NCBI GenBank assembly: GCA_013824165.1
Contig: PNNH01000100.1
Span: 26,917-90,916, forward strand
Direction: 5' to 3'
Origin: Methylibium sp.
GTDB lineage: Bacteria; Pseudomonadota; Gammaproteobacteria; Burkholderiales; Burkholderiaceae_C
DNA length: 64,000 nt
Part shown: piece after piece, positions 3,419 to 64,000 of the stretch
How positions within the stretch are numbered: position 1 is the stretch's first letter
Layout: the number at the start of each line of letters is the position of its first letter
Translations under genes and position numbers: made by a program
Notes under the pieces: model-generated
Database searches by the model: none
The model's input: the letters and a program-made list of their open reading frames with translations, nothing else
What the model was told of the DNA's origin: nothing

Positions 3419-4309
3419 ATGGTCAGTGCAGTCTTTCATTCCCCGCGCGAGGCGCTGGATGCGGCCACTGAGGCGGCCGCGACGATAACGGCAAAAGTGC
3501 CAGCCCCAAGGGCGAGCGCGCCGGCAGTGTCGCGCATCGATTGGCGCGCAGTCTGGATGCGCGTGCTGCCGCCGGTGCTGGGGCTGGCCCTGCTGGTGGC
3601 GGTGTGGGCCGTGCTGACGCAAAAAGGCGGCAGCTTTCCCACGCCGTCAGCCACCTTCGATGCCGCCGTCAAGCTGTTCTCCGATCCCTTCTACAGCAAG
3701 GGTCCGAACGACCAGGGCATAGGCTGGAACATCCTGTTCTCGCTGCAGCGCGTGGCGCTGGGCTTTGGTCTGGCCGCGGCGGTGGGCATTCCACTGGGCT
3801 TCATCATCGGCCGCTTCGAGTTCGCCAATCGCATGGTGTCGCCGCTGATCAGCCTTCTCAAGCCGGTCTCGCCGCTGGCCTGGCTGCCGATCGGACTGCT
3901 GGTCTTCAAGAGCGCCAACCCGGCCGCGATCTGGACCATCTTCATCTGCTCGATCTGGCCCATGGTGGTCAACACCGCGGTGGGCGTCCAGCGCGTGCCG
4001 CAGGACTACCTGAACGTGGCGCGCGTGCTCAAGCTCAGCGAGTGGAAGGTCATCACCAAGATCCTCTTCCCCGCGGTGCTGCCCTACATGCTGACCGGCG
4101 TGCGCCTGTCGGTGGGCACGGCCTGGCTGGTGATCGTGGCGGCCGAGATGCTGACCGGCGGCGTGGGCATCGGCTTCTGGGTCTGGGACGAGTGGAACAA
4201 CCTCAATGTGGCCCACATCATCATCGCGATCTTCGTGATCGGCATCGTGGGGCTGCTGCTGGAGTGGCTGCTGATAAGCATCGCCAAGCGCTTCTCTTTC
4301 GAGGACTGA
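3419..4309 (+). CDS. nrtB: Nitrate ABC transporter permease
   Basis: This is a multi-TM BPD-type permease (WLPIGLLVF, AAEMLTGGVGIGFWVWDEW). ATG 3419 has AGGAG 8 nt upstream. GTG 3398 is the longest alternative start. Confidence 0.88.
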   Translation: MVSAVFHSPREALDAATEAAATITAKVPAPRASAPAVSRIDWRAVWMRVLPPVLGLALLVAVWAVLTQKGGSFPTPSATFDAAVKLFSDPFYSKGPNDQGIGWNILFSLQRVALGFGLAAAVGIPLGFIIGRFEFANRMVSPLISLLKPVSPLAWLPIGLLVFKSANPAAIWTIFICSIWPMVVNTAVGVQRVPQDYLNVARVLKLSEWKVITKILFPAVLPYMLTGVRLSVGTAWLVIVAAEMLTGGVGIGFWVWDEWNNLNVAHIIIAIFVIGIVGLLLEWLLISIAKRFSFED

Positions 4310-4313
4310 GACC

Positions 4314-5114
4314 ATGAGCAAAGCATTCATCGCCGTGCAGGCCGCCGAGATGGTATTCAGCACCCGCAAAGGCAGCTTCCATGCGCTGCGCGACATCAAT
4401 CTGGATGTGCAGCGCGGCGAGTTCATCACGCTGATCGGCCACTCGGGCTGCGGCAAGAGCACGCTGCTGAACCTGATTGCCGGCCTGCTCCAGCCCACGA
4501 GCGGAGTGCTGCTGTGCGACAACCGCGAGATCAGCGAGCCCGGCCCGGAGCGCGCCGTGGTGTTCCAGAACCACTCGCTGCTGCCCTGGCTGAGCTGCGC
4601 CGAGAACATCTACCTTGGCGTCGAATCGGTGTTCGGCGGCCGCGAACTCAAGCGCCAGCTGCACGAGCGCACAGCCGCCGCGCTGGAGCTGGTGGGCATG
4701 GGGCATGCTGCCAACAAGCGACCGCATGAAATCTCCGGCGGCATGAAGCAGCGCATCGGCATCGCCCGCGCGCTGGCCATGGAACCGAAGGTGCTGCTGA
4801 TGGACGAACCCTTCGGGGCACTGGATGCGCTCACCCGCGCCAAGCTGCAGGACGAGCTGCTGAAAATCGTCGCACGTACGCAGAGTACCGTGGTGATGGT
4901 CACGCACGATGTGGACGAGGCGGTGCTGCTGTCCGACCGCATCGTGATGATGACCAATGGGCCTGCCGCCGCCATCGGCGAGATCCACGCAGTGGACCTG
5001 CCGCGACCGCGTGATCGCGTGGTGCTGGCCGAAGACCCGCGCTATATCGCCGCGCGCAAGGCAGTAATCGACTTCCTCTATACCCGCCATGCCCATGTGG
5101 AGGCCGCCGCATGA
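4314..5114 (+). CDS. Nitrate/nitrite ABC transporter ATP-binding protein (single ABC domain, NrtD/NasD type)
   Basis: Walker A is GHSGCGKSTLL, the signature is ISGGMKQRIGIARAL and Walker B is LLMDEPFGALD. Confidence 0.9.
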   Translation: MSKAFIAVQAAEMVFSTRKGSFHALRDINLDVQRGEFITLIGHSGCGKSTLLNLIAGLLQPTSGVLLCDNREISEPGPERAVVFQNHSLLPWLSCAENIYLGVESVFGGRELKRQLHERTAAALELVGMGHAANKRPHEISGGMKQRIGIARALAMEPKVLLMDEPFGALDALTRAKLQDELLKIVARTQSTVVMVTHDVDEAVLLSDRIVMMTNGPAAAIGEIHAVDLPRPRDRVVLAEDPRYIAARKAVIDFLYTRHAHVEAAA

Positions 5115-7558
5115 ATGCCCCGCTCAGGAGAATGAAGCTGGTGCTGGTGGGGAACGGCATGGCCGGCGTGCGCACGCTGGAAGAGCTGTTGAAGATTGCG
5201 CCGGAGCTTTACGACATCACGGTCTTCGGCGCCGAGCCGCATCCCAACTACAACCGCATCCTGCTCAGCCCGGTGCTGGCTGGCGAGCAGACCCTGGACG
5301 AGATCATCCTCAACCCGCTGGACTGGTATGTCGACCACGGCATCACGCTGCATCTCGGCAAGAAGGTCGCGACCATCGACCGGGTGCGCCGCTGCGTGAT
5401 CGCCGACGACGGCACGGAAGCGCCTTATGACCGCCTGCTGATCGCTACTGGCTCCGACCCCTTCATCCTGCCAGTACCGGGCAAGGACCTGCAAGGCGTG
5501 ATCGCCTACCGCGACATCGCCGACACGCAGGCCATGATCGATGCGGCGCAGAAGTACCAGCACGCCGTCGTCATCGGCGGCGGCCTGCTGGGCCTTGAAG
5601 CCGCCAACGGCCTGATGCTGCGCGGCATGCAGGTGACCGTGGTGCATATCGGCGACTGGCTGATGGAGCGCCAGCTCGACGACCAGGCCGGCGCGCTGCT
5701 TCGTCATTCGCTGGAGCAGCGCGGCCTGAAGTTCCGCCTTGGCGCCCACACGCAGGCGCTGATCCCCGACAAAGACGGCAGGGTGATGGCCGTGCAGTTC
5801 AAGGACGGCTCCGAGATCCCCGCCGACCTGGTGGTGATGGCCGCCGGCATCCGCCCCAACACCGCGCTGGCCGAGCGCGCGGGCCTGCACTGCCAGCGTG
5901 GCATCGTCGTCACCGACACGCTCCAGACCGTCACCGACCCGCGCATCTATGCGGTGGGCGAATGCGCGGCGCACCGCGGCATCGCCTACGGGCTGGTGGC
6001 GCCGCTGTTCGAGCAGGGCAAGGTCTGCGCTACGCACCTGGCCGAGTTCGGCATCGGCCGCTACCTGGGCAGCCAGACCAGCACCAAGCTCAAGGTCACC
6101 GGCATCGACCTCTTCTCGGCCGGCGATTTCATGGGCGGCGAGGGATGCGAAGAGATCGTGATGAGCGACCCCTTCGCCGGCGTCTACAAGAAACTGGTGA
6201 TCAAGAACGACCAGTTGGTCGGCGCCTGCCTGTACGGCGACACGGTGGATGGCAGCTGGTATTTCAAGCTGCTGCGCGAGGGCCGCAAGGTGGCCGACAT
6301 CCGCGACAAGCTGATGTTCGGCGAAAGCAATATCGGCGATGTCGGCCATCAGGGCCACAACAAGGCCGCGGCCATGGCGGACAGCGACGAGGTCTGCGGT
6401 TGCAACGGCGTCACCAAGGGCACCATCTGCAAGGCGATCAAGGACAAGGGCCTGTTCACGCTGGAGGAGGTGCGCAAGCACACCAAGGCCAGCGCCAGCT
6501 GCGGGTCCTGCACCGGCCTGGTCGAGCAGCTCTTGATGTTCACCGCCGGCGGCGACTACTCGGCCACGCCCAAGAAAAAGGCGATCTGCGGCTGCACCGA
6601 GCTGAGCCACCAGGACGTGCGTGAGGCCATCTTCGATCACCACCTCACGTCGCTGGATGCGCTCTACAAGGCCCTGGACTGGAAGAGCCCGAACGGCTGC
6701 GCGACCTGCCGCCCGGCGCTGAACTACTACCTGATTTCTTCCTGGCCCAAGGAGGCACAGGACGATCCGCAAAGCCGCGCGATCAACGAGCGCGCGCACG
6801 CCAACATCCAGAAGGACGGCACGTACAGCGTGATCCCGCGCATGTGGGGCGGCGAGACCACGGCTGACGAGCTGCGCCGCATCGCCAACGCGGTGGACAA
6901 GTACAAGATCCCCACCGTCAAGGTTACCGGCGGTCAGCGCATCGACCTGCTGGGCGTGAAGAAAGAGGACCTGCCGGCCGTGTGGAAGGACATCGGCATG
7001 CCCAGCGGGCATGCCTATGCCAAGGCTCTGCGGACCGTGAAGACCTGCGTGGGCAGCGAGTGGTGCCGCATGGGCACACAGGACAGCACGCAGATGGGCA
7101 AGGACCTGGAGCGCGCGATGTGGCGCATGTATGCGCCGCACAAGGTCAAGTTCGCCGTTTCCGGCTGCCCCCGCAACTGCGCCGAAGCAGGCATCAAGGA
7201 CGTGGGCATCATCGGCGTCGACTCGGGCTGGGAGATGTATATCGCCGGCAATGGCGGCATCAAGACCGAGGTGGCGCAGTTCCTCGTCAAGCTCAGGACG
7301 CCCGAGGAGGTGATGGAGTACACCGGCGCCTTCATGCAGCTCTACCGCAAGGAAGGCTGGTACCTGGAGCGCACGGTGCACTACGTCTCGCGCGTGGGCA
7401 TGGACTACGTCAAGAAGAAGATCCTCGACGACGCCGAGGGCCGCAGCGCACTGTGGGCCGAGCTGCAGTACGCGCTGGAGGGCGAGCCCGACCCCTGGTT
7501 CGAATTCGCCAAGGCCAAGGTCGATGTCCGTCAGTTCGAAGCCCTCCAGGGAGCTTGA
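5111..7558 (+). CDS. nirB: Assimilatory nitrite reductase [NAD(P)H] large subunit
   Basis: The protein is 815 aa. It has an FAD/NAD fold (KLVLVGNGMAGVR), BFD-like Cys motifs (CGCNGVTKG, CGSCTG) and a sirohaem/4Fe-4S region (TCVGSEWCR...SGCPRNC). The start overlaps the upstream stop (ATGA). ATG 5135 is an alternative start. Confidence 0.92.
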   Translation: MNAPLRRMKLVLVGNGMAGVRTLEELLKIAPELYDITVFGAEPHPNYNRILLSPVLAGEQTLDEIILNPLDWYVDHGITLHLGKKVATIDRVRRCVIADDGTEAPYDRLLIATGSDPFILPVPGKDLQGVIAYRDIADTQAMIDAAQKYQHAVVIGGGLLGLEAANGLMLRGMQVTVVHIGDWLMERQLDDQAGALLRHSLEQRGLKFRLGAHTQALIPDKDGRVMAVQFKDGSEIPADLVVMAAGIRPNTALAERAGLHCQRGIVVTDTLQTVTDPRIYAVGECAAHRGIAYGLVAPLFEQGKVCATHLAEFGIGRYLGSQTSTKLKVTGIDLFSAGDFMGGEGCEEIVMSDPFAGVYKKLVIKNDQLVGACLYGDTVDGSWYFKLLREGRKVADIRDKLMFGESNIGDVGHQGHNKAAAMADSDEVCGCNGVTKGTICKAIKDKGLFTLEEVRKHTKASASCGSCTGLVEQLLMFTAGGDYSATPKKKAICGCTELSHQDVREAIFDHHLTSLDALYKALDWKSPNGCATCRPALNYYLISSWPKEAQDDPQSRAINERAHANIQKDGTYSVIPRMWGGETTADELRRIANAVDKYKIPTVKVTGGQRIDLLGVKKEDLPAVWKDIGMPSGHAYAKALRTVKTCVGSEWCRMGTQDSTQMGKDLERAMWRMYAPHKVKFAVSGCPRNCAEAGIKDVGIIGVDSGWEMYIAGNGGIKTEVAQFLVKLRTPEEVMEYTGAFMQLYRKEGWYLERTVHYVSRVGMDYVKKKILDDAEGRSALWAELQYALEGEPDPWFEFAKAKVDVRQFEALQGA

Positions 7559-52042: not shown

Positions 52043-54001
52043 ATGACCACGCCACGCAGCTATCCGCACGACACCATTCCCGCCGCGCTGGACGCGCTGA
52101 GCGAGCGCCCCGCCGCCTTGCGGCCGGCGCCTGTGGCTGTCGATCTTGATGGCGTCTGGAACGCCCTGCGCAGCCAGCCCGAGCAACATGCGCCACATCT
52201 CGGCGATGCACTGATCGAAGCGGGCCTGCTGGGCGCAGCGCAGCTGCAAACCGCCTTGCGGCGCCAGGCCGCAATGGGCCAACATGTGCCGATCGGTGAA
52301 CTGCTAGTGCAGCTCGGCCTGATCAGCCCGGCCCAGCTTCGCATGACCCTGGCCGCCTGGCTGGGCGTGCCCACCGTCGACCTGGCCCATGCCCGGCCCG
52401 AGCCGCAGGCGCTGGACCGCGTGCCGCGCGCGCTGGCGCAGCGCGAATCTGTGCTGCCGCTGATGGTGCGCGAGGACATGCTGGTGGTGGTGGTCTCCGA
52501 CCCCTGGGATCAGCGCCTGCTGGACGTGCTGCGCTTCGTCACCGAGCTGCGCATACGCCCGGTGCTGGCCGCGCCGGGTACCTTGACGCCGGCGATTGCC
52601 CAGGCCTACCAGATCAAGCTGGATGCCCAGGGCGGCAGCCCCGCGCCGAGCAGCGGTCCGGGCCTGCCGATGCAGGCACAGAGCATTCGCGAGCTGGCCC
52701 AGGAACTGGGCGAGGGCGATGCCGCCAGTGCCGAGGCGGATGCCGGCGCTGTCTCGGAGTCCGACAACGCGCTGGTGCGCCTGGTCAATCGCCTGATCGC
52801 GGATGCGGTCGAGCTGCGCGCTTCCGACATCCACATCGAGACCTTCGAGGCGCCCAAGCCGGTGCGTGTGCGCATGCGCGTCGATGGCGATCTGGTGCGC
52901 TATCTGGAACTGCCGGCGCGCGTGCGCTTTGCCGTGGTGGCGCGGCTGAAGATCATGGCCGATCTCGACATCTCCGAGCACCGTCGGCCGCAGGACGGCA
53001 AGATCGACTTCAGCCGCTTCGGTGGCGCGCCGCTGGAGCTGCGCATGGTCACCGTGCCGACCAGCGGCGGGCTGGAGGACGTGGTGCTGCGCCTGCTGGG
53101 CGGCATGCGGCCGCTGCCGCTGGATGGCATCGGTCTGTCGGACGCCAATCTGGAGGGTTTGCGCCGCATGATGGCCAAGCCCTATGGCCTGCTGCTGATC
53201 TGCGGCCCGACCGGTTGCGGCAAGACCACCACGCTGCACTCGGTGATGCGCGAGTTGAACGAGGACAAGCGCAAGATCTGGACTGCCGAGGACCCGATCG
53301 AGATCACGCAGGATGGTCTGCGCCAGGTGCAGATGAATCCGCGCATCGGCTGGACTTTCGCGGCAGCGATGCGCACCTTTCTGCGCGCCGATCCGGATGT
53401 CATCATGATCGGCGAGATGCGCGACGAGGAGACCGCACGCATCGCGGTAGAGGCCTCGCTGACCGGCCATCTGGTGATGTCCACGCTGCACACCAACTCG
53501 GCGCCCGAGAGCGTCACGCGCCTGCTCGAAATCGGGCTGGACCCCTTCATGTTCTCGGACTCCTTGCTGGCCGTGCTGGCGCAGCGCTTGGTGCGGCGCC
53601 TGTGCCTGGACTGCCGCGTGCCCGAGCCGCTGGACGAGCGCGCCACGCGTTCGCTGCTGCGCCTGTATCTGCAGTCGGGCAGCGGCGCCTCCGATCACAG
53701 CGAGGAGACGCTGTTGGCGAACTGGCATCAGCATTGCGCGGTCGATGGCCAGTTACGCCAGTACCGCCGCAATGGCTGCGATGCCTGCGGCGGCACGGGC
53801 TACAAGGGCCGCCTGGGCATCCACGAACTGGTGATCGCCGATGAGGCGCTGCGCGAGCTGATCCGGCGCCGCGCGCCAGCCAGCGAGATGTTCGTCGCCG
53901 CGCAGCGTAGTGGCATGAGCACGCTGCGCCAGGACGGCATCGCCAAGCTGCTGGCGGGCCTGACCGATCTGACCGAGGTGCTGGCGGCGACCGGGCAGTA
54001 A
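52043..54001 (+). CDS. GspE/PilB/MshE-family secretion ATPase with N-terminal tandem MshEN-like motifs; no partner secretion or pilus genes nearby
   Basis: It has Walker A GPTGCGKTTT, an Asp box, Walker B (VIMIGEMRD), a His box (LVMSTLHTN) and a tetracysteine motif (CLDC...CDAC). The N-terminus carries HLGDALIEAGLLGAAQLQTALRRQ and PIGELLVQLGLISPAQLRMTLAAW. Confidence 0.88.
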   Translation: MTTPRSYPHDTIPAALDALSERPAALRPAPVAVDLDGVWNALRSQPEQHAPHLGDALIEAGLLGAAQLQTALRRQAAMGQHVPIGELLVQLGLISPAQLRMTLAAWLGVPTVDLAHARPEPQALDRVPRALAQRESVLPLMVREDMLVVVVSDPWDQRLLDVLRFVTELRIRPVLAAPGTLTPAIAQAYQIKLDAQGGSPAPSSGPGLPMQAQSIRELAQELGEGDAASAEADAGAVSESDNALVRLVNRLIADAVELRASDIHIETFEAPKPVRVRMRVDGDLVRYLELPARVRFAVVARLKIMADLDISEHRRPQDGKIDFSRFGGAPLELRMVTVPTSGGLEDVVLRLLGGMRPLPLDGIGLSDANLEGLRRMMAKPYGLLLICGPTGCGKTTTLHSVMRELNEDKRKIWTAEDPIEITQDGLRQVQMNPRIGWTFAAAMRTFLRADPDVIMIGEMRDEETARIAVEASLTGHLVMSTLHTNSAPESVTRLLEIGLDPFMFSDSLLAVLAQRLVRRLCLDCRVPEPLDERATRSLLRLYLQSGSGASDHSEETLLANWHQHCAVDGQLRQYRRNGCDACGGTGYKGRLGIHELVIADEALRELIRRRAPASEMFVAAQRSGMSTLRQDGIAKLLAGLTDLTEVLAATGQ

Positions 54002-54639: not shown

Positions 54640-55056
54640 TCACTGAGTCCTTGCTAAGGCGGTGTCCGCGAGCCCGTCGAGTATGGGGCAGTCCGGGCGC
54701 TCGTCGCCGCGGCAGCAACTGACCAGCTGTTCCAGCGCCAGCTTCATCGCCTGCATCTCGGCCAGGCGGCGCTCAAGGTCGGCGATATGCGATTTGGCGA
54801 TGCGCTTGACCTCGCTGCTGGCGCGGCGCCGGTCTTGCCAAAGCGCCAGCAGCTCGGAGATCTCGGCTATCGAGAAGCCCAGGTCGCGGGCGCGCCGGAT
54901 GAAGCGTAGCGTGTGCACATCGCTATCCGAATAGAGCCGGTAGCCGGCTTCGGTGCGCGCTACCTTGGGCAGCAGGCCCAGCGATTCGTAATGCCGCAGC
55001 ATCTTGGCGGATACGCCCGAGCGTGCGGCGGCGTCGCCGATGGTGATGTGGCTCAT
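54640..55056 (-). CDS. cueR: Cu(I)-responsive MerR-family regulator CueR
   Basis: The protein starts [29 protein letters not shown]. The C-terminal metal loop is [12 protein letters not shown]. The start overlaps the copA stop (ATGA). Confidence 0.88.
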
Positions 55057-57434
55057 GGCTTTGCCTTCGCGGTCCAGCGCTTGAGCAGCAACGCATTGCT
55101 GACCACCGACACGCTGGAGAAAGCCATCGCTGCACCAGCAATCACCGGGTTCAGATAGCCGAGCGCGGCCAGCGGAATGCCAACAACGTTGTATGCAAAG
55201 GCCCAGAACAGGTTCTGCCGGATCTTGGCCAGCGTGCGCCGCGACAGCTCGATGGCTTGCGCCACCAGCGCCGGGTCACCTCGCATCAAGGTGATGCCGG
55301 CCGCATGCATGGCCACATCGGTGCCGGTGGACATGGCCAGCCCCACATCGGCTGCAGCCAGTGCGGGCGCATCGTTGATGCCGTCGCCGACCATGGCCAC
55401 GCGCTGCGTGCCTCCGGCCTTGAGCTCGCTGATGATGCGGGCCTTGTCCTCGGGCAGCACCTCGGCGCGCACCTCGTCGAGGCCGAGTGCCCGGCCCACC
55501 GCCTCGGCGCTGCCGCGGTTGTCGCCGCTGAGCATCACGGTGCGCAGGCCCAGGGCCTTGAGGGCCTGGATGGCGGCGGCCGCAGTGGGCTTGAGCGGGT
55601 CGCCAAAAGCCAGCAGGCCCAGTAGGCGCGGAGCAGGCGTCAGCGTGGCCAGCCAGGACACGGTGCGGCCCTCAAGCTGCAACTGGCTGGCGTTGGCCTG
55701 CAGGGCCGCGCAGTCCACGCTCAGCTCCTGCATCAGGCGCGAGCTGCCCAGGCGCAGCTTCGCGCCGTCGACGCTGGCGGCCACGCCGCGTCCGGCGATG
55801 GCACGCAAGGCGCTGGCGGCCGGCACCTCGAGCCCGCGTGTGCTGGCCGCCGCGCCGACTGCGCGCGCCAGCGGGTGCTCGCTGCCTGCCTGCAAGGCCG
55901 CAGCCAGCGCCAGCACCTGGGGCTCGTCCTCGCCGGGCGCGGCCTGCAGGGCCACCAGCTCCGGCTTGCCGGCGGTCAGCGTGCCGGTCTTGTCAAAGGC
56001 CACGATGCTCAGATGCGCGGCCAGCTCCAGCGCCTGCGCGTCCTTGATCAGCATGCCGTGCCGCGCGGCCACGCCGGTGCCGGCCATGATGGCGGTGGGC
56101 GTGGCCAGGCCCAGCGCGCAGGGGCACGCGATCACCAGCACCGCCACCGCGTTCAGCAGCGCCTGCTCCCAGTTGCCGTTCGCCAGGCCCCAGCCCAGCA
56201 GCGTGACCGCGGCGATGCCCGCCACCACTGGCACGAAGACGGCGCTGACCTGATCGACCAGGCGCTGGATCGGTGCTTTGCCGGCCTGGGCCGACTCGAC
56301 CAGGCGCACGATGCGCGACAGCGTCGACTCCGCGCCCAGCGCCGTGACGCGCAGCTGCATCAGCCCCTCGCCATTGACGGCGCCGCCTACCACCTTGTCG
56401 CCGACATGCTTGGCCACAGGCAGGCTCTCGCCGGTGATGAGCGATTCGTCCACCTGGCTGTCGCCTTCAATCAGCTCGCCATCCACCGGGATGCGCTCGC
56501 CCGGGCGCACCAGCACCGTGTCGCCCAGCACCAGCTGGGCCAGCGGCAGCTCCAGCTCCTGCCCGTCACGGCGCACCCGCGCGGTTTCCGGTCGCAGTGC
56601 CTTGAGCGCGCGGATCGCTTCGGTGGTCTGGCGCTTGGCGCGCGCCTCCAGCCATTTACCCAGCAGCACCAGTGTGATGACGACCGCGGCCGATTCGAAA
56701 TACAGCGCATGCGCATGGCTGCCGTGCCGCAGCAGCTGATACAGGCTCAGGCCGAAGGCGGCGCTGGTGCCCAGCGCCACCAGCAGGTCCATATTGCCGG
56801 CGCCGGCGCGCAGCGCGGCCCAGCCGGCCTTGTAGAAGCGCGCGCCCAGCCAGAACTGCACCGGTAGCGTCAGGGCCAACTGCCACCAGCCATCGATCAT
56901 CCAGTGGCGGCCGACCAGCAGGCCCAGCATGGGCAGCACCATTGGCGCCGACAGCCCGGCGGCAATCAGCACCGGCCAGCCGCTGTGCTGCCAATCCGGC
57001 TTGGCGCGCGGCGCGTCACCGGCCAGGCTGGCCTGGTAGCCGGCGCGCGTTACGGCCGCAATCAAGGTCGCTGGCTCCACGTCCGCCAGAGCGTCGACGC
57101 TGGCACTCTCGGTGGCCAGATTGACCGCAGCCTTCAAAACGCCGGGCACTTTCAGCAAGGCCTTCTCGACCCGGCCGACGCAGGAGGCGCAGGTCATGCC
57201 GCTGATCTGGAGCGTCAGCTGCTGCTCTCGCAGGCTGTAGCCGGCCTTGACGACCGCCTCGCGCAGGGCCGGCATGCCGGTCTTGGCATCGGTCTGCACG
57301 CGGGCGGTCTCTGTGGCCAGATTGACCTCGGCCTGCTGCACGCCGACCACGTTCTTCAGGGCCTTTTCGACCCGGCCGACGCAGGAGGCGCAAGTCATGC
57401 CTGCAATGGGCAGGTTCCATGTGAGGGTGTTCAT
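55053..57434 (-). CDS. copA: Copper-translocating P1B-type ATPase with two N-terminal HMA domains
   Basis: It has two [15 protein letters not shown] motifs, a [10 protein letters not shown] motif, DKTGTLT and GDGINDAP. Confidence 0.95.
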
Positions 57435-57440
57435 GGCGGC

Positions 57441-57472
57441 AGTCTGAAGCTTTCCATGATGGTAAGGTCAAG
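57441..57472 (-). promoter_or_regulatory. MerR(CueR)-type promoter/operator of copA-cueR
   Basis: The minus strand reads cTTGACC-TTACCATCATGGAAAGCTT-CAGACT. It has a 19-nt spacer containing the dyad CTTACCA-N3-TGGAAAG. The -10 element ends 6 nt before the copA ATG. Confidence 0.7.
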
Positions 57473-57495
57473 CCCGCCTGTCACCTGAGCTGTCA

Positions 57496-57527
57496 CTTGA
57501 CCTTGCCATGGTGGCAAGCTTCAGACT
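57496..57527 (+). promoter_or_regulatory. MerR(CueR)-type promoter/operator of copZ
   Basis: The plus strand reads cTTGACC-TTGCCATGGTGGCAAGCTT-CAGACT. It carries the perfect dyad CTTGCCA-N3-TGGCAAG in a 19-nt spacer. It is the mirror image of 57441-57472. Confidence 0.7.
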
Positions 57528-57561
57528 CTGGGCTCTTTTCGTTACTTGTGCGAGTACCGCC

Positions 57562-57765
57562 ATGCATGAATTTCATCTTCCCGACATGAGCTGCGGCCAC
57601 TGCGTCGGCGCCATCACCCAGGCCGTCAAGGCGGCGGACGCGCAGGCCGAGCTTGATTTCAAGCTGGCCCAGCATGAGGTCAGCATCCGCAGCCAGCTGG
57701 GCCGCGAGCAGCTCAGTGAAGTGCTGAGCGAGGCGGGCTATCCACCGGCCGCAGCGGCGGCCTGA
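57562..57765 (+). CDS. copZ: Heavy-metal-associated (CopZ-like) copper chaperone
   Basis: The protein starts MHEFHLPDMSCGHCVGAITQAVK (MxCxxC). ATG 57562 is downstream of the predicted promoter. The track start at 57508 lies inside the operator. Confidence 0.8.
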   Translation: MHEFHLPDMSCGHCVGAITQAVKAADAQAELDFKLAQHEVSIRSQLGREQLSEVLSEAGYPPAAAAA

Positions 57766-57772
57766 GGAGGCT

Positions 57773-59473
57773 TCACTCCAGTGCTGATGAAACCTGGCTG
57801 ATTGGCGCCGTGCGCGGAAGCCGCAGCGTGAACGCCGCGCCGCCCTGGGCGGACGCGCCGGCTTCGATGCTGCCGCCCAGCAGGCCCTTGACCAGGCTGA
57901 AGCAGATGTGCAGGCCCAGGCCTGAGCCGCCCTGGCCCAGGCGCGTGGTGAAGAAGGGGTCGAAGATGCGCAGCAGGTTCTCGGGCGGAATGCCGCTGCC
58001 GTCGTCACTGACGCACATCAGCAGATGCTCAGGGCCGTCCGGCCTTGCGCTCACCGTGATGTGACCCTGGCTGTGCCCCTCGAAGGCGTGCAGCAGCGCG
58101 TTGTTGATCAGATTGATCAAGACCTGGCCCAGCGGCCCAGGGAAGCTGTCCAGCTGCAGCGGCTCCGGGATGTCGACGACGACCTCATGCGAGCTTCGGC
58201 GCAAGGCGGGACTCAGCGTCAACAGCACCTCGTCGACGCCGGTGCGCAGATCGAAGCTGCGGCGCTGGTAGCTCGACTGGTCCACCGCCAGTTGCTTGAA
58301 GCCATTGATCAGCTCGACCGCCCGGCTCAAGTTGCTCATCAGCATGCGCGAAATCTCGGCCACCGTCTGGGCGTAATGCTCTAGCGTCGACCGCGTCAGC
58401 TTCTGCGTGCGTTTCAGATCGAATTCGGCCGACAGCTGCTCCAGCGTGCTGCTGGTCAGCAAGGCATTGCCGATCGGCGTATTGAGCTCGTGCGCCACGC
58501 CTGCCACCAGGGCGCCCAGCGATGACAGGCGCTGCGTGCGCACCAGCTCGTCCTGTGCGCGCTGCACCACCTCCAGCGCGTCGGCCAGTTCGCGGGTGCG
58601 CAGCGCCACGCGCTCTTCCAGCGTCGCATTCAGTTCCCTGAGCGCCTGTTCTGCGCGCCGGTGCTCGGTGATGTCGCGGGCCACCCAGATGCTCAGATGG
58701 CGGCTGGACGACTGCCATTGCCGCGCCGAAACCTCGAAATTCAGGATCGAGCCGTCAGCGCGCCGCATGTCCAGCTGCTCGCCATCCACCTGGCCGTTCT
58801 GGCCGAAGCGCCGGCCCATCGCCGCCACCGCATTCATGTCGACCCACAGGTTCAGGTCGCGCGAGGTCTTGCCGATCACCTGCTGCTTGGTGTAGCCCAT
58901 CTTGGATGCCCAGGCGCGATTGATGTCGATGAACTCGCCGGTCTTGGCATCGCTGATCAGCAGCGTCTCAGGCACCACATCGAACAGCTGCAGCGCCACG
59001 GCCTCGCTGTCGCGCAAGGTCTGCTCCAGTTCGCGCTGGGCCTGGATGTCCTGCATGGACAGCACGGCCCAGTCGCGCCGGCGGCTGAGCACGCGGCGGG
59101 CGCAAATCCGGAACCAGCGCTGCTCGCTATCGCCTACCCGCAGCTGGGCGTCCAGCGCGGTTTCCGAGCCGGCAGAGGTCAGCGCGGCGATCAGGCGCGC
59201 CCGGTCCTGCGGGTCGATCCACAGGTTCAGTTCTTGCCCATTGCGCCCGACAGCCTGCCCGGCGCTCAGACCGAACTGCTGGTACCACTGTGGGTTGGCA
59301 TCGACCAGGCGGTAGCCTTGCAGCGGATCCACCAGGGCCATCGCAACCGGAGAGGCGTCAAAGACCCAGGCCATGTGCTCGCGGGCGCCGCGGCGGCGCA
59401 GGCAAAGCCAGAGCGCCGCGGCGACAAGCGAGGCAGCCGCGGCGATCAGCGCCAACAAGGTCGACAAGGTCAT
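57773..59473 (-). CDS. Membrane-anchored PAS/PAS sensor histidine kinase (no periplasmic domain)
   Basis: It has a single N-terminal TM segment (LLALIAAAASLVAAALWLCL), two PAS-like regions, an H-box (LVAGVAHELNTPIGN) and N/G boxes (LINLINNALLHAF, DDGSGIP, GGSGLGLHI). Confidence 0.9.
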   Translation of the reverse strand: MTLSTLLALIAAAASLVAAALWLCLRRRGAREHMAWVFDASPVAMALVDPLQGYRLVDANPQWYQQFGLSAGQAVGRNGQELNLWIDPQDRARLIAALTSAGSETALDAQLRVGDSEQRWFRICARRVLSRRRDWAVLSMQDIQAQRELEQTLRDSEAVALQLFDVVPETLLISDAKTGEFIDINRAWASKMGYTKQQVIGKTSRDLNLWVDMNAVAAMGRRFGQNGQVDGEQLDMRRADGSILNFEVSARQWQSSSRHLSIWVARDITEHRRAEQALRELNATLEERVALRTRELADALEVVQRAQDELVRTQRLSSLGALVAGVAHELNTPIGNALLTSSTLEQLSAEFDLKRTQKLTRSTLEHYAQTVAEISRMLMSNLSRAVELINGFKQLAVDQSSYQRRSFDLRTGVDEVLLTLSPALRRSSHEVVVDIPEPLQLDSFPGPLGQVLINLINNALLHAFEGHSQGHITVSARPDGPEHLLMCVSDDGSGIPPENLLRIFDPFFTTRLGQGGSGLGLHICFSLVKGLLGGSIEAGASAQGGAAFTLRLPRTAPISQVSSALE

Positions 59474-59559
59474 GGATCAGGTGTGGGTCGGGTGCCGCTG
59501 CAATTTAGCAGATGCCTGCCCGCCCGGCCTGATCCGGAAGCAGGCGGCTGCCGCGCTAT

Positions 59560-60747
59560 TCAGCCTTTGCCGGGAGGCTTGGGCGCCGCCTTGCCCTTGA
59601 CGGGTGCGGGCTCCGGCTTGACCGGTCGCGGAGGCGGGGCCGGCTTGGCTGTGACCTTGATGATGAAGTTGGCTTCGCGGTCGGCGGTCGGCGGGTGCGT
59701 GCGTGCATAGCCTTGCTCGTTGCCACCGCTGGCCGCCATGCTGTCGCGGAACTCATTCCAGGCCAGCGTCGGGTTCTGTCCGGCCGCCTTCAGCCAGTGG
59801 GCGGCGCAGGCATCGGCCTCAAGCTCCTGCTCGCTGGAGAAGTTCAGCTGCAACTCGCGCGCGAAGCTGATCAGCTGCGGCACCACGGTGATCGTGAACC
59901 AGCCGTCGCGGATCGGGTCGAAGCTGGCTCCGCGCTGCGCCCGCTGCAGCAACTTCTTGGCCAGCTCCCAGCCATCGCGGCTGGACAGCAGCTCGAACTG
60001 CATGCGCTTGACCGCATGGCGCTTGTAGACATGCGCCAGCTCATGCGCCAGCAGCAGATCGGCGCCGGCCGGCCGCTCGGACATGGTCTGCAACATATTG
60101 CGCGAGACCTGAATCAGGCCGCCGAACTTGGCGAAGGCGCCATCCGCTAGCTCTGGATTCATGCGCAGCTTGGCCTCGGCCGGGAAGTCGGTGGTCAGCG
60201 CGCGGAACTTGTCGAGCTGCGCCTGCACTTCCTTGAAGGCGTCTTGCTCGACCGGGGTCAGCGCGTCATCGCCGCGAGGGCTGACTAGATCGAAGGCGCT
60301 GCCCAGCTTGCTTTCCAGCTCAACCGGCAGCCAGACCGTGGTTTGCGCGACATAACGCAGCATCTCGCGGTCTTCGGGGCTGAGGTTGTCGTACTTGAAG
60401 TCCGAGGCCAGCAGGCGCTCCAGCCGCAGTGTGGCTTCGCTGCCGCCGTATTCGATCAGTTTCTCGGCGATGTTGAACTTCTCCTGCGGCCGCTTGCACT
60501 GGCGGTCGGGTGCCAGTTCGCTCTCGATCTTGGCCTTGCGCGCTGCGGCCTCGGGCGATTTCGAGTTGGCGGTCGCCAGCGTGTTGAGCGGCGCGCTGGC
60601 TGCCGCCTCAGCGGGCTTGGGCGGCAGGCCGGCTGCGGTCGGCGCCAGATTCTTCAGCAGTTCCAGGAACTGGGCCTGCGCGGGCAGGGCCAGCAACAGG
60701 CCGGCAGCCAGCAGGGCAGCGGCGCGGCGGGTCGGGGTGGGCTTCAT
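59560..60747 (-). CDS. Secreted M48-family zinc metalloprotease with Lys/Pro-rich C-terminal tail
   Basis: It has a signal peptide (AAGLLLALPAQAQ), HELAHVYKRH and a downstream EQELEAD. The tail reads KPAPPPRPVKPEPAPVKGKAAPKPPGKG. The start overlaps the upstream stop (ATGA at 60744-60747). Confidence 0.85.
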   Translation of the reverse strand: MKPTPTRRAAALLAAGLLLALPAQAQFLELLKNLAPTAAGLPPKPAEAAASAPLNTLATANSKSPEAAARKAKIESELAPDRQCKRPQEKFNIAEKLIEYGGSEATLRLERLLASDFKYDNLSPEDREMLRYVAQTTVWLPVELESKLGSAFDLVSPRGDDALTPVEQDAFKEVQAQLDKFRALTTDFPAEAKLRMNPELADGAFAKFGGLIQVSRNMLQTMSERPAGADLLLAHELAHVYKRHAVKRMQFELLSSRDGWELAKKLLQRAQRGASFDPIRDGWFTITVVPQLISFARELQLNFSSEQELEADACAAHWLKAAGQNPTLAWNEFRDSMAASGGNEQGYARTHPPTADREANFIIKVTAKPAPPPRPVKPEPAPVKGKAAPKPPGKG

Positions 60748-61586
60748 GGTGCGCGAGTCCTCAGTTCGGATTGCAGGGCGTCCCAGAACAGCTGGTTCTC
60801 GGCCAGCGTGTCATACCAGGCGAGCGCCTCGTCCATGCCCTGCTGCTGGACGCGCTGCTGCGCGCGCTGGCGCAGGCGTTGGACCATTGCGGATGACAGC
60901 AGCGAGAACTCGCCGCTGGCCAGCGCGCGGCCGTCGCCATCGAGCAGCCGGTACTGGTACAGGCCGCCGGGCTGCAACGTGCCGCCGCCCAGCACGGCGC
61001 GGCCCTCCTCGAAGCGCAGGCTCAGCTCGGCGCGGTAGCCCGGCAAGGGCGTGCCACGGGCGAGGCGCAGATGCAGGCTGGCGTTGAGATCGGCCTGGGT
61101 CAGTAGCATCAGCTGCTCGGCGTCGTTGGGCAGCACCGAGCCACAGGGCAGGCCCAGCTCGCAGGGCTTGCCTTCGCCGGCCGGGCGGCTCTCGCGGTTG
61201 TCGATGCCATGGCCGCCCACCGCCGCCTGCTTGGCCGCCATCGCCGTCTGCAGGCAGGCAGCGCTGAGCACCGAGCAGGGTTGGTCGGGCGGGTATTTGC
61301 TGAACAGCTCGGCCAAGCTGCGCCCGGACTCCTGCGGCGGTGGCGCGAACCAGCGGTTCTTGTGCATGTAGCGCAGCTCCACCGCCCCGGCGCTGACTTG
61401 CAGCTTCTCGCATTGGCGGGCCAGCAGCCACTGGCTGGGCCTGAGGGGCTCGTTTGCCGCCGGTGTCACCGCGCAGCCGGCCTGCTGGCAGGACAGCTTG
61501 CAGTCGACCGCCTGTGCGGCGCCAGAAGCCCACAGGCCCGACAGCAACAGGATCAGTGTGGGCAGGCGCGGGATCAGTCGTGTCAT
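60744..61586 (-). CDS. Secreted hypothetical protein, 8 Cys in the N-terminal half, Cys-free C-terminal half
   Basis: It has a signal peptide (LILLLSGLWASGAAQA) and a GAGGAG SD before ATG 61586. I recognise no family. Confidence 0.65.
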   Translation of the reverse strand: MTRLIPRLPTLILLLSGLWASGAAQAVDCKLSCQQAGCAVTPAANEPLRPSQWLLARQCEKLQVSAGAVELRYMHKNRWFAPPPQESGRSLAELFSKYPPDQPCSVLSAACLQTAMAAKQAAVGGHGIDNRESRPAGEGKPCELGLPCGSVLPNDAEQLMLLTQADLNASLHLRLARGTPLPGYRAELSLRFEEGRAVLGGGTLQPGGLYQYRLLDGDGRALASGEFSLLSSAMVQRLRQRAQQRVQQQGMDEALAWYDTLAENQLFWDALQSELRTRAP

Positions 61587-61604
61587 GCAGGCTCCTCGTC
61601 AATC

Positions 61605-63272
61605 TCAGTGGCTGGAATTGATCGCCAGCGCCACCACGCCGGCCAGCATCAGCGCCCAGTAGCCGAACAGGCGCAGGCGCGCATCAAGCGCTGAATCAAG
61701 TGGTGCTGCGGCCTGCAGGAAGACACGGGCCAGCAGACTGCGACGAGGCCCCGGCGAGTGGCGGTCGTGCTGCGCGCCGCTCGACCAGCCCTCCAGGAAG
61801 GCGTGCAGGCCCATGCCCAGCACCACATACATCGGGTTGAACCACAGCGGCTGCGCGGACCGGCTCATCAGCCAGCTGGCCAGCACCACGCCGAGCCAGC
61901 TGAACAGCAGCGCCAGCGCCACGCTGCTGGCGGCCAGCAGCAGCCGGGTCAGTCCCGGCAGGTGGTGGTGCAGGGCGCCAAGCAGATAGACATGGATCAT
62001 GCAGGCCAGCAGCACGAAGCCCGCGCCTAGCACCAGGTCGGCCAGTGCGCCCTGCCAGCTGGCTTCCTTTAGCGGCTGCTGCAGGCTCAGGGTCTGCAGC
62101 GCATGCAATGTGGCACCGCCCACCGGCCGCGCCAAGGCGCCGGGCGTGGCGAAGCGGTCGTTGCCAGCGCCGCCGTCGACACTGAGCATCAGGATTGGGG
62201 CTTGCAGGCGGTGCTCGCGCAGCTGCGCCTGCAGCTGCTCTGTCCAGCGGCCCTCGCCGTCCCAGCTCAGCGGCGTGAAGCGCAGCGCTTCGCTGTACAG
62301 CAGCGGCCAATTGAAATACGCCCGCTCATAGCGCGCTTCGAGCTGGTGCACGGCATAGCCGGGCGCGTCGGCCGGGTTCATGCGGTCTTCGGCCAGTTGG
62401 CTCGGGCCGGCCTTGGCCTCGGCGCACAGGTGCGTCAGGCTGCGCTGCACGTCGGGCTGCAGCTTCCCGGGCGTTGCGGCGAGATGGGCTAGCAAGCCCA
62501 GCGTAGGGAAGAGCGGGGAAAGACCACCAGCCTGCTTGGCCTGGGTCAGGTAGTACAGCGGGCCTTCATGCTCGCGCTGCATCAGGCGCGAGGAGGCGAA
62601 GTACAGGCCGTGCGGTTGGGCGGGAGTGTCGCTGCCGGCCACGCTGCCATCAGCAAGGCTGCAGCCGGCGGCCATCATGAATGTGTTGCGAGCCAGACGC
62701 TCTTCGTCCGTGCCGCGGTCCAGTGCGATGACCACAACCGCGACGTGCTGGCGCAGTGCTTTCAGGGCGCCGAGCATCGCGGGAAGTGCGCTGGCATCGT
62801 CCTTGGTCAGCGGGGCAAGATCCACGTCGATGGCTAGCACCCGGGGCTTGGCACCCGCAGCGATGCAGCGCTCGCCGTCGCCGAGGCATTGCGCCAGCTG
62901 CTGCAGCAGCTCGGCCATCGCCCGGCGGTCGATCGGCCGCACACCGTCCAGGCGGCGTATCGTGGCGGCATCCACATTGCCGGCCTCCAGGGCCAGCATC
63001 CTCAGATCGGCGCCGATCTCCAGCTGCTGCACCGCCAGCAGGTCGCGCGTGGCGGCGGGGCGCTCCTCTGTTGACTCGTGCTGCAGCAGGCGGCTGACGA
63101 CGGCGCTGGTGAAGCGGTGGTCGAAGCTCGCCAGCACATCCAGGTGCATCGCATGCAGCAGCTGCGTGACAGCGGTCAGCACCAGTGCCATGCGCAGCCC
63201 GCGCAGAAGCAGCTCCAGAAAACCCGGCTCGGCGCCGTGCGTTGGCGCCGTGTTGGCGGAAATCGCGGACAT
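61605..63272 (-). CDS. CHASE2-like extracytoplasmic sensor membrane protein without any output domain
   Basis: The order is an N-terminal TM segment, about 330 aa of periplasmic region (PRVLAIDVDLAPL, HVAVVVIALDRGTDEE), then 3-4 C-terminal TM helices, after which the protein ends. ATG 63272 is preceded by GGGAGGG. The track start at 63383 is probably too long. Confidence 0.7.
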   Translation of the reverse strand: MSAISANTAPTHGAEPGFLELLLRGLRMALVLTAVTQLLHAMHLDVLASFDHRFTSAVVSRLLQHESTEERPAATRDLLAVQQLEIGADLRMLALEAGNVDAATIRRLDGVRPIDRRAMAELLQQLAQCLGDGERCIAAGAKPRVLAIDVDLAPLTKDDASALPAMLGALKALRQHVAVVVIALDRGTDEERLARNTFMMAAGCSLADGSVAGSDTPAQPHGLYFASSRLMQREHEGPLYYLTQAKQAGGLSPLFPTLGLLAHLAATPGKLQPDVQRSLTHLCAEAKAGPSQLAEDRMNPADAPGYAVHQLEARYERAYFNWPLLYSEALRFTPLSWDGEGRWTEQLQAQLREHRLQAPILMLSVDGGAGNDRFATPGALARPVGGATLHALQTLSLQQPLKEASWQGALADLVLGAGFVLLACMIHVYLLGALHHHLPGLTRLLLAASSVALALLFSWLGVVLASWLMSRSAQPLWFNPMYVVLGMGLHAFLEGWSSGAQHDRHSPGPRRSLLARVFLQAAAPLDSALDARLRLFGYWALMLAGVVALAINSSH

Positions 63273-63444
63273 GGCCCTCCCTGCAGGCGCTCGTTCATCG
63301 GTCCTTGGCGCAAGCATGAAGCAAGCGGGGGTTCCGGGCATCAGGTCTTCCCGCAGGGGCGGACTCCCAAAGTTAGGGGGCACGACCCTGGTGCTGTGCC
63401 GGAACGGGACGTCAAGAGAGGGTCACAAATGAGCCGCGTGACGA

Positions 63445-63488
63445 CCAAAAAAAGGAAAAGGCCCCGGCCGTGCAACACGACCAGGGCC
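63445..63488 (-). terminator. Intrinsic terminator after the iorB-like gene
   Basis: On the minus strand, GGCCCTGG-13 nt loop-CCGGGGCC is followed by TTTTCCTTTTTTTGG. Confidence 0.7.
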
Positions 63489-63513
63489 CGCAGGCGGAGC
63501 GTTCTGCACCGGG

Positions 63514-64000
63514 TCAGGCGGTTTTCTTCAGCCCCGCCGCGTCTATCGGCAGCGTGCGAACCCGCACGCCGGTCGCGGCGAAGAGGGCATTGCAGACCGC
63601 CGGTGCGATCGGCGGGGTGCCGGGCTCGCCGATGCCGCCGGGTGCTTCCTGGCTGGCGATGATCTCCACCTCCACCTTGGGCATCTCGTTGATGCGCAGC
63701 ACCGGGTAGTCGTGGAAGTTGCCCTGCTCGACGCGGCCGTCCTTATGGCTGATGCGCCCATACAGGGCCGCCGTCAGGCCGTAGACGATGCCGCCTTCGA
63801 TCTGGCGGGCGATGGTCAGCGGGTTGACCGTCTGGCCGCAGTCAACTGCTGCGACCACCTTGTGCACGCGCGGCGTGCCGTCGGCGGCCACCGAGACCTC
63901 GGCCACTTCGGCGACGATGCTGCCGAAGCTCTCGGCCAGTGCGATGCCATGGTGACGCCCCTTGGGCAGCGGCTTGCCCCAGCCGGCCTTGGCCGCGGCG
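63514..64000 (-). CDS. Molybdopterin-binding subunit of an aldehyde oxidase/xanthine dehydrogenase-family enzyme (IorB-like), C-terminal part. The 5' end lies beyond the window end.
   Basis: The protein contains [37 protein letters not shown] and [32 protein letters not shown]. The frame continues open to position 64000. Confidence 0.8.

Follow-up and report, generated by a model that had tools for sequence, protein, structure and literature searches.

The question addressed here is whether a sensor-like membrane protein without any output domain signals through the histidine kinase encoded beside it, or belongs to a different functional unit. The question arises from a stretch of 64,000 nucleotides of Methylibium sp. 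(GenBank assembly GCA_013824165.1, contig PNNH01000100.1, positions 26,917 to 90,916; hereafter, the window), near the end of which four genes lie in tandem on the minus strand. In an earlier interpretation made from the DNA letters (hereafter, the sequence-only reading), the first gene product was regarded as the detached CHASE2 sensor of the kinase encoded by the fourth gene. On the basis of the comparisons described below, we lean toward the view that the first three genes (designated G1, G2, and G3) constitute a self-contained and conserved extracytoplasmic module, with the kinase outside it. All four open reading frames (ORFs) were recovered where the sequence-only reading had placed them, as follows:

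61605-63272, minus strand: G1, 555-amino-acid ORF, predicted divergent stand-alone membrane protein of the CHASE2 family
60744-61586, minus strand: G2, 280-amino-acid ORF, predicted secreted protein with eight cysteines
59560-60747, minus strand: G3, 395-amino-acid ORF, predicted secreted M48 zinc metalloprotease
57773-59473, minus strand: 566-amino-acid ORF, predicted membrane-anchored PAS-PAS-HisKA-HATPase_c histidine kinase

G1, G2, and G3 form a conserved, tightly packed three-gene unit. The trio was found in approximately 30 independent contigs; those with G1 homologues at 59%, 47%, 35%, and lower identity, including relatives that only the profile search reached, all shared the gene order G1-G2-G3, and the neighboring genes overlapped or nearly did so. 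In the window, the spacing of G1 and G2 is 18 nucleotides with a GAGGAG Shine-Dalgarno sequence, and the stop codon of G2 overlaps the start codon of G3 (ATGA, 60744-60747), both as had been described. The earlier grouping of these three genes was thus borne out by the gene order and the tight junctions, which are conserved in close and distant contigs. The GC content of the trio loci ranged from 0.22 to 0.73, and the cassette is therefore taxonomically widespread. A hidden Markov model (HMM) built from G2 recognized the middle gene of every trio obtained in the survey from the G1 side, and at one distant locus (L015) the first gene is annotated as CHASE2 by Pfam. For the reverse test, metagenomes were scanned with the G3 alignment and all ORFs were scored with the HMMs of G1, G2, and G3. 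Among the loci with at least 2.5 kb of upstream sequence, G1 was located upstream of G3 in 17 of 17 and G2 was detected by its HMM in 16 of 17, the exception (L041) having, at the position of G2, an ORF for a secreted, Cys-containing protein of 236 amino acids, and the 45 loci that matched the generic M48 catalytic core only had neither G1 nor G2. With the profile of a 7-sequence alignment, a related locus was obtained from one genome only, a metagenome-assembled genome (MAG) of Roseateles, and the word-indexed homologue search with an 82-sequence profile gave nothing beyond the close family already known. Note that the L041 locus (3786-6759; also L040; 22.5% GC) has a compact trio, consisting of a 408-amino-acid Pfam-positive CHASE2 protein, the above-mentioned 236-amino-acid secreted Cys-containing protein, and a 339-amino-acid M48 protease (overlapping start); the range of the cassette thus extends far beyond Burkholderiales.

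The fourth gene has a different distribution. The kinase gene was found after G3 only in the window, in L004-6 (the metagenome contig L004, from the Joint Genome Institute, is approximately 99% identical to the window), and in the Roseateles MAG L007, which is the closest named relative of the window (Roseateles is placed in the family Sphaerotilaceae, order Burkholderiales). In L016 (G1, 59% identical), L001/L002, and L019, no kinase lies between G3 and copZ; copZ and copA come directly after G3, as does cueR further on where the contig is long enough. It is also absent at L017/18 and at all distant trio loci, the neighbors of which are unrelated. The flanking ORFs of 29 trio loci were clustered for recurrent neighbors; no fourth gene recurred beyond the synteny within clades, no kinase or regulator recurred, and about three of the 29 loci had any kinase in the flanks, which is roughly the chance level by a rough estimate. 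Because the kinase is absent from the sister and distant loci and no fourth gene recurs, we regard the PAS-PAS kinase as an insertion specific to one Roseateles-like lineage, in which it came to lie between G3 and copZ, and it is not a conserved partner of the trio. The synteny of four genes in related genomes, on which the sequence-only reading had staked its proposal, therefore fails at the fourth gene. The domain composition of the kinase was one N-terminal transmembrane (TM) helix, two cytoplasmic PAS domains, HisKA, and HATPase_c (HATPase_c, 85 bits; HisKA, 19.8 bits, under the cut-off of 26.9 bits, with the H-box AHELNTP present). The earlier description of this protein as "sensor-less" was appropriate as to the single N-terminal TM helix and the lack of a periplasmic sensor domain, but not as to the cytoplasm, where the two PAS domains are present. 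No receiver domain was found in the 64-kb window by phmmer with a single REC query (a weak test), in line with the earlier remark that no response regulator is encoded nearby.

The assignment of G1 to CHASE2 required an indirect approach. G1 itself gave no match to Pfam CHASE2 (PF05226; gathering cut-off, 26.3 bits) even at E ≤ 10, and matches were found in two of 17 close G1 relatives (best E, 4.5e-5). The NCBIfam and PADLOC scans of G1 were likewise uninformative. An exhaustive profile search with the G1 family yielded 248 cluster representatives at E ≤ 0.001, and the full-length proteins among the 150 matches listed were 460-730 amino acids long. Twelve of the 82 wider-family members scanned matched Pfam CHASE2, and neither an output domain nor any other Pfam domain was found in these 82. 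Nine of ten low-ranking members of the family scored 25.8-55.1 bits on the CHASE2 model, and the trio-locus G1 proteins of L015, L036, L041, and L042 passed its cut-off. When the G1 family was compared by hhalign with the profile of 19 stand-alone, mostly CHASE2-positive proteins, the probability was 100% (E, 2.3e-43), and the alignment (476 columns) spanned the full length, membrane helices included. The order of motifs, read by eye, was also shared with the canonical CHASE2 kinase of L004: RP.DR of G1 corresponds to WP.RR (WPYRR in the L004 kinase), and (A/F)IDxD and G..D..TP....G...HA are retained, in the places of FDIVF and the C-terminal motif of that kinase, respectively. Since its family aligns over the full length with proteins that pass the Pfam threshold, G1 is taken, by remote homology, as a divergent, output-less member of the CHASE2 family. 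The CHASE2-like, output-less character given to G1 in the sequence-only reading is thus supported by remote homology and by the lack of output domains in the family, but not by a direct Pfam match. Loss of the output domain by an assembly frameshift, which had been named as a possible artifact, was ruled out, since the output-less architecture is conserved across the family (0 of the 82 with an output domain; full-length proteins within the above-mentioned length range).

The structure of G1 was predicted with AlphaFold2 (predicted local distance difference test (pLDDT), 80; predicted template modeling score (pTM), 0.82). The model has a helix at residues 18-42, an alpha/beta region of approximately 360 residues (45-405), and four C-terminal helices (406-437, 439-469, 481-497, and 528-554). 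It agrees with the earlier description of one TM segment, a periplasmic region, and a C-terminal helix bundle, and the predicted arrangement matches the topology of CHASE2 proteins (a TM helix, an extracytoplasmic region of approximately 300 amino acids, and several TM helices). A Foldseek search with the model found no neighbor in the PDB (best E, 0.085). Across the 82 G1-family sequences, P113, D149, D372, and G386 are invariant, and R116, D151, C204, C283, H390, D412, G416, and G486 are nearly invariant; such a set of residues would fit a conserved binding site for a ligand or metal together with a disulfide bond. The C-terminal part (residues 406-555; nucleotides 61605-62057) contains the family-conserved residues D412, G416, W477-x-N479-P480, G486, H490, E494, and D530, and the W-x-N-P...G...H...E membrane motif was not spotted when the canonical L004 CHASE2 kinase was read by eye. 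The conserved residues of the membrane helices suggest a functional membrane-embedded site in G1.

G2 consists of a signal peptide, an N-terminal domain with eight cysteines, an Ig/FN3-like beta-sandwich, and a C-terminal three-helix segment. The eight cysteines were invariant in 21 homologues obtained by the word-indexed search, as were many other positions of the N-terminal domain. The AlphaFold2 model (pLDDT, 87.8) showed an N-terminal Cys-rich beta/alpha region followed by the Ig/FN3-like sandwich and the three-helix segment. By Foldseek, the Cys-rich N-terminal region had no match in the PDB, and the C-terminal half gave generic Ig/FN3 matches only. No Pfam or NCBIfam family matched G2; together with the signal peptide, this bears out the earlier account of a secreted 280-amino-acid protein of unrecognized family, and G2 defines a new protein family. 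A cryptic FecR domain (PF04773) was considered for G2 and rejected (hhalign against the FecR alignment, probability 0.4%; no Pfam match). No toxin-like domain was detected.

G3 had been read as an M48 protease bearing a signal peptide, and it was confirmed as such by the match to Pfam Peptidase_M48 (62.9 bits; E, 4.6e-17; cut-off, 20.3 bits), by HExxH with the downstream Glu, and by the signal peptide. The catalytic motifs AHELAHVYKRH and QELEADAC were invariant among the homologues, including the zinc-site residues H235, E236, H239, and E308/E310. The signal peptide is followed by a conserved, family-specific N-terminal domain of approximately 130 amino acids (PDRQC.RPQEKF...), in which an invariant Cys pairs with a Cys of the catalytic domain, then by the catalytic domain and a Pro/Lys-rich tail. 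G3 scored far under the cut-offs of the BepA (NF052400), LoiP, and HtpX equivalogs (26.9 against 570, 18.1 against 365, and 15.2 against 245 bits, respectively), and no TPR domain was found in it by Pfam. Among solved structures, BepA and the soluble M48 peptidase 3c37 come closest to G3. One G3 homologue gave a weak, sub-threshold match to M56, the G3 of L015 carries a lipoprotein-like signal peptide (LSGC; read by eye), and a tblastn search of plasmids with G3 gave no match. G3 represents a distinct M48 subfamily.

Among the trio proteins, G3 is the most conserved and G1 the least (the fastest-evolving). In each of the four pairwise comparisons, the genes and their domains had dN/dS values within 0.12-0.72, and all three trio genes are under purifying selection; these values and the invariant catalytic motifs of G3 argue that the genes are functional. 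The comparison with the Roseateles MAG L007 delimited the following block:

61340-63570, minus strand: putative recombination block relative to Roseateles MAG L007, delimited by the profiles of nucleotide identity and synonymous divergence (dS)

Against L007 (3200-5400), the nucleotide identity was 95-96% in the MoCoBD gene, fell to 57-73% from approximately 63570 to 61340 over the promoter, the whole of G1, and the first approximately 95 codons of G2, which correspond to the Cys-rich domain, and returned to 93-97% in the remaining part of G2. Because dS was high (0.73-0.89) inside the block and low (0.14-0.18) outside, the block is better explained by the replacement of this part with a deeply diverged allele than by local positive selection. 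That G1 was exchanged in one cassette with the Cys-rich N-terminal domain of G2 suggests that the two work together.

According to the module reading, the three proteins would assemble at the outer (periplasmic) face of the inner membrane, where G1 would bind G2 through the disulfide-rich N-terminal domain of G2. The output of the module would be periplasmic proteolysis by G3, instead of phosphorylation or nucleotide cyclization; the target of G3 would be G2 itself or a substrate that G1-G2 presents, and the acidic/His cluster of the CHASE2 core (D149, D151, D372, H390, and R116 of RP.DR) would be a ligand or metal site that gates the proteolysis. A wider proposal, which we offer tentatively and consider rather doubtful, is that this branch of CHASE2 signals wholly outside the cytoplasm, controlling a dedicated M48 protease via a co-evolving disulfide-rich partner, and that G1 and the N-terminal domain of G2 are exchangeable specificity alleles. 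Several points weigh against these interpretations. G1 itself fails the Pfam CHASE2 model, and hhalign of the G1-family profile against one canonical CHASE2 kinase sequence gave no signal. The proposed ligand site of G1 derives from conservation alone, the model having no PDB neighbor, and the polar conserved residues in the membrane helices suggest a role of these helices beyond anchoring. The interactions of the trio proteins and the cleavage by G3 are deduced from the genes alone, and the argument from the allelic cassette concerns a single recombination event. In addition, the trio lies near a FecR protein and a CHASE2 hybrid kinase in Roseateles-like lineages, even after rearrangement.

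The last point leads to the first of the rival explanations. Just past the end of the window (2582-7034 of L004), a 555-amino-acid FecR-domain protein and a 913-amino-acid CHASE2-HisKA-HATPase-REC hybrid kinase are encoded upstream of the Fer2/MoCoBD aldehyde oxidase genes, and this block stays linked to the trio in L004, L001/2, and, rearranged, L017/18. The trio might thus be an accessory input to the hybrid kinase, for example by processing or presenting its ligand, and pairs of FecR and CHASE2-kinase genes are a described type of operon (PMC5192318). The persistent linkage means that a real signaling-pathway link may exist in Roseateles-like lineages. However, the linkage is limited to one clade, no such pair was found by the flank clustering beside the distant trios (including L003, L008, L009, L011, L015, and L024-L048), and the two-gene aldehyde oxidase and a terminator separate the two units, so that we judge this explanation quite unlikely. 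The other kinase-based explanation is that of the sequence-only reading, in which G1 would be the detached periplasmic sensor of the adjacent PAS kinase, acting through the membrane, with G2 and G3 being the ligand and its processing enzyme. It draws on the common strand of the four genes, on the 86-nucleotide gap before the kinase (in which no terminator-like site was found), on the single N-terminal TM helix and missing periplasmic domain of the kinase, and on the kinase that also follows G3 in the Roseateles MAG L007. It is contradicted by the absence of the kinase from L016, L001/2, L017/18, L019, and all distant trio loci and by the flanks, in which no kinase recurred and the few found were at about the chance level (rough estimate); the kinase itself possesses two PAS domains, and the search with the single REC query found no receiver domain in the window. 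We consider it highly improbable and the least likely of the rivals.

The remaining explanations do not invoke a kinase. If the trio were a protease system for housekeeping or quality control of the envelope, comparable to BepA, LoiP, and YcaL, G1 would be a mere anchor or adaptor without sensing; the identity of the nearest solved relatives of G3 (3c37 and BepA), the position of G3 as the most conserved trio protein, and the lipoprotein-like signal peptide of the L015 G3 fit this possibility. G3, however, lacks the TPR domain of BepA and reaches 26.9 bits against the 570-bit cut-off, the retention of the CHASE2 core residues in 82 diverse members of the G1 family argues against a passive anchor, and the joint exchange of G1 and the G2 N-terminal domain fits specific recognition better than housekeeping. 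We therefore hold this explanation to be unlikely. The trio might otherwise be a polymorphic recognition or conflict locus, with the G2 N-terminal domain as a variable effector or ligand, G1 as receptor or immunity protein, and G3 as maturation protease. The diverged cassette of G1 and the G2 N-terminal domain in a 93-97% identical background, the rapid evolution of G1, and the secreted, disulfide-rich nature of G2 would be expected of such a locus. Against it, one replacement event was seen and dN/dS was below 1 throughout; PADLOC gave two matches only (E, 0.019; approximately 12 bits each); and the eight Cys and many other positions of the G2 N-terminal domain are invariant, unlike typical polymorphic toxin tips, with no toxin-like domain detected. 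We give this explanation little credence. As an observation made once, a TIR_2-domain protein followed by a FecR/TPR protein (146-3360 of L003) is encoded approximately 6.5 kb upstream of a distant trio, possibly representing a conflict-system neighborhood.

The limits of the trio transcription unit in the window were examined with the following features:

63459-63489, minus strand: terminator-like hairpin with T-run (14-bp stem, 10 GC pairs, TTTTCCTTTTT tail)
63273-63458, minus strand: putative promoter and 5' leader of the trio (TTGACG -35-like hexamer; conserved Shine-Dalgarno sequence CAGGGAGG before the ATG at 63272)
59474-59559, minus strand: spacer between G3 and the kinase (86 nucleotides, no T-run terminator, stable fold)

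The terminator that the sequence-only reading had placed upstream of the four genes corresponds to a single strong terminator-like hairpin in the consensus scan; the hairpin terminates the upstream aldehyde-oxidase (MoCoBD) gene and sets the 5' boundary of the trio transcription unit. An alternative start of G1 is the upstream GTG at 63383. Because CAGGGAGG-N3-ATG is kept at the G1 start in three related contigs (L007, L016, and L001), the ATG at 63272 is likely the start codon of G1. For the 86-nucleotide gap between G3 and the kinase, the same scan found no terminator-like site, in agreement with the earlier statement that no convincing terminator is present, and the kinase may be co-transcribed with the trio in this strain. 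The spacer has a minimum free energy of -43.4 kcal/mol (z, -2.27), and its 8-bp closing helix (GGAUCAGG/CCUGAUCC) stops 2 nucleotides before the AUG of the kinase; no clear Shine-Dalgarno sequence was visible in the spacer before the kinase. This arrangement could reflect translational control or weak expression of the kinase. The Rfam scan of 57000-64000 gave nothing relevant.

On the other side of the kinase, the window has a copper cluster (54640-57765) consisting of cueR (54640-55056, minus strand), copA for a P-type ATPase (55053-57434, minus strand), and a copZ-like HMA gene (57508-57765, plus strand). In L017, a small HMA gene still adjoins G3, with copA and cueR absent. A link to copper was considered as a general explanation of the trio and rejected, because the adjacency of copZ/copA/cueR holds only in the Roseateles-like clade. 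The divergent copA-copZ promoter (57440-57528) gave spurious Rfam matches to mir-4776 on both strands (34 and 29.6 bits; cut-off, 97 bits), which most likely reflect an inverted repeat, possibly the operator of the MerR-type regulator CueR. Upstream of the cueR region, 52043-54001 encodes a 652-amino-acid protein that resembles the GspE/PilB-type secretion ATPases (translation read by eye); the matching region of L004 is annotated as T2SSE, and it is apparently unrelated to the trio. In L043 (677-5204), a distant G3-like M48 gene is followed by genes for a MerR-family protein and a MoCoBD protein; this echo of the cueR/aldehyde-oxidase neighborhood of the Roseateles-like trios could be due to chance or to a functional link.

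CHASE2 is a common bacterial extracytoplasmic sensor, and what it recognizes is not known according to the Pfam statement quoted in PMC5192318; the G1 model had no solved relative in the fold search. The existence of a CHASE2 subfamily that has lost every cytoplasmic output, but is tied by its operon to a dedicated protease and a secreted protein, implies that CHASE2 can work through periplasmic protein partners, and G2 and G3 are two candidate direct interactors of CHASE2 that are open to biochemistry. The present comparison also corrects the assumption that adjacency of a kinase means a split two-component system. If the wider proposal of signaling wholly outside the cytoplasm is true, the trio would be a new type of sensor-protease device in bacteria of 22-73% GC and would provide a tractable route to what CHASE2 domains bind. 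A full-text literature search gave no link of CHASE2 with M48, in accordance with the sequence-only reading, to which no described system of this composition was known, and no such cassette was present in the part of the CHASE2 literature examined.

CHASE2 is known from kinases, cyclases, GGDEF proteins, and Ser/Thr kinases, and also as a fusion to caspase-like proteases. With the CHASE2 receptors (PF05226; CyaD1, CyaD2, and CyaK of S. meliloti, and the BiofilmReg kinase of Burkholderia), G1 appears to share the TM helix, the periplasmic alpha/beta region of approximately 300-360 amino acids, the order of the core motifs, and the multi-helix membrane segment. It differs from them in that its family (82 members) has no cytoplasmic kinase, cyclase, or GGDEF output, in that its four C-terminal helices carry the W-x-N-P...H...E motif, not spotted in the canonical kinase of L004, and in that a Cys-rich secreted protein and an M48 protease take the place of the FecR-domain partner. 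The operons of a FecR-domain protein and a CHASE2 kinase (BiofilmReg), described in PMC5192318, likewise pair a secreted accessory protein with a CHASE2 membrane protein, but G2 is not FecR-like by the hhalign comparison, and the trio unit has neither a kinase nor a response regulator. With BepA, LoiP, and YcaL of E. coli and 3c37 of Geobacter, G3 has in common the HExxH...E zinc site, the secreted or lipoprotein location, and the membership in M48, whereas it lacks TPR, falls far under the equivalog cut-offs, has its own N-terminal domain of approximately 130 amino acids, and is obligately syntenic with G1-G2. The nearest likeness in concept is to BlaR1/MecR1 (M56, related to M48), in which an extracytoplasmic sensor is also coupled to a gluzincin protease and not to a kinase. 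In BlaR1, however, a single polypeptide contains both the sensor and the protease, and the latter is on the cytoplasmic side, where it cleaves a repressor, whereas the protease of the trio is separate and secreted and no repressor is encoded. Relative to these systems, what would be new here is a branch of CHASE2 with a trans-acting periplasmic protease partner, alongside the new G2 family and the distinct M48 subfamily of G3.

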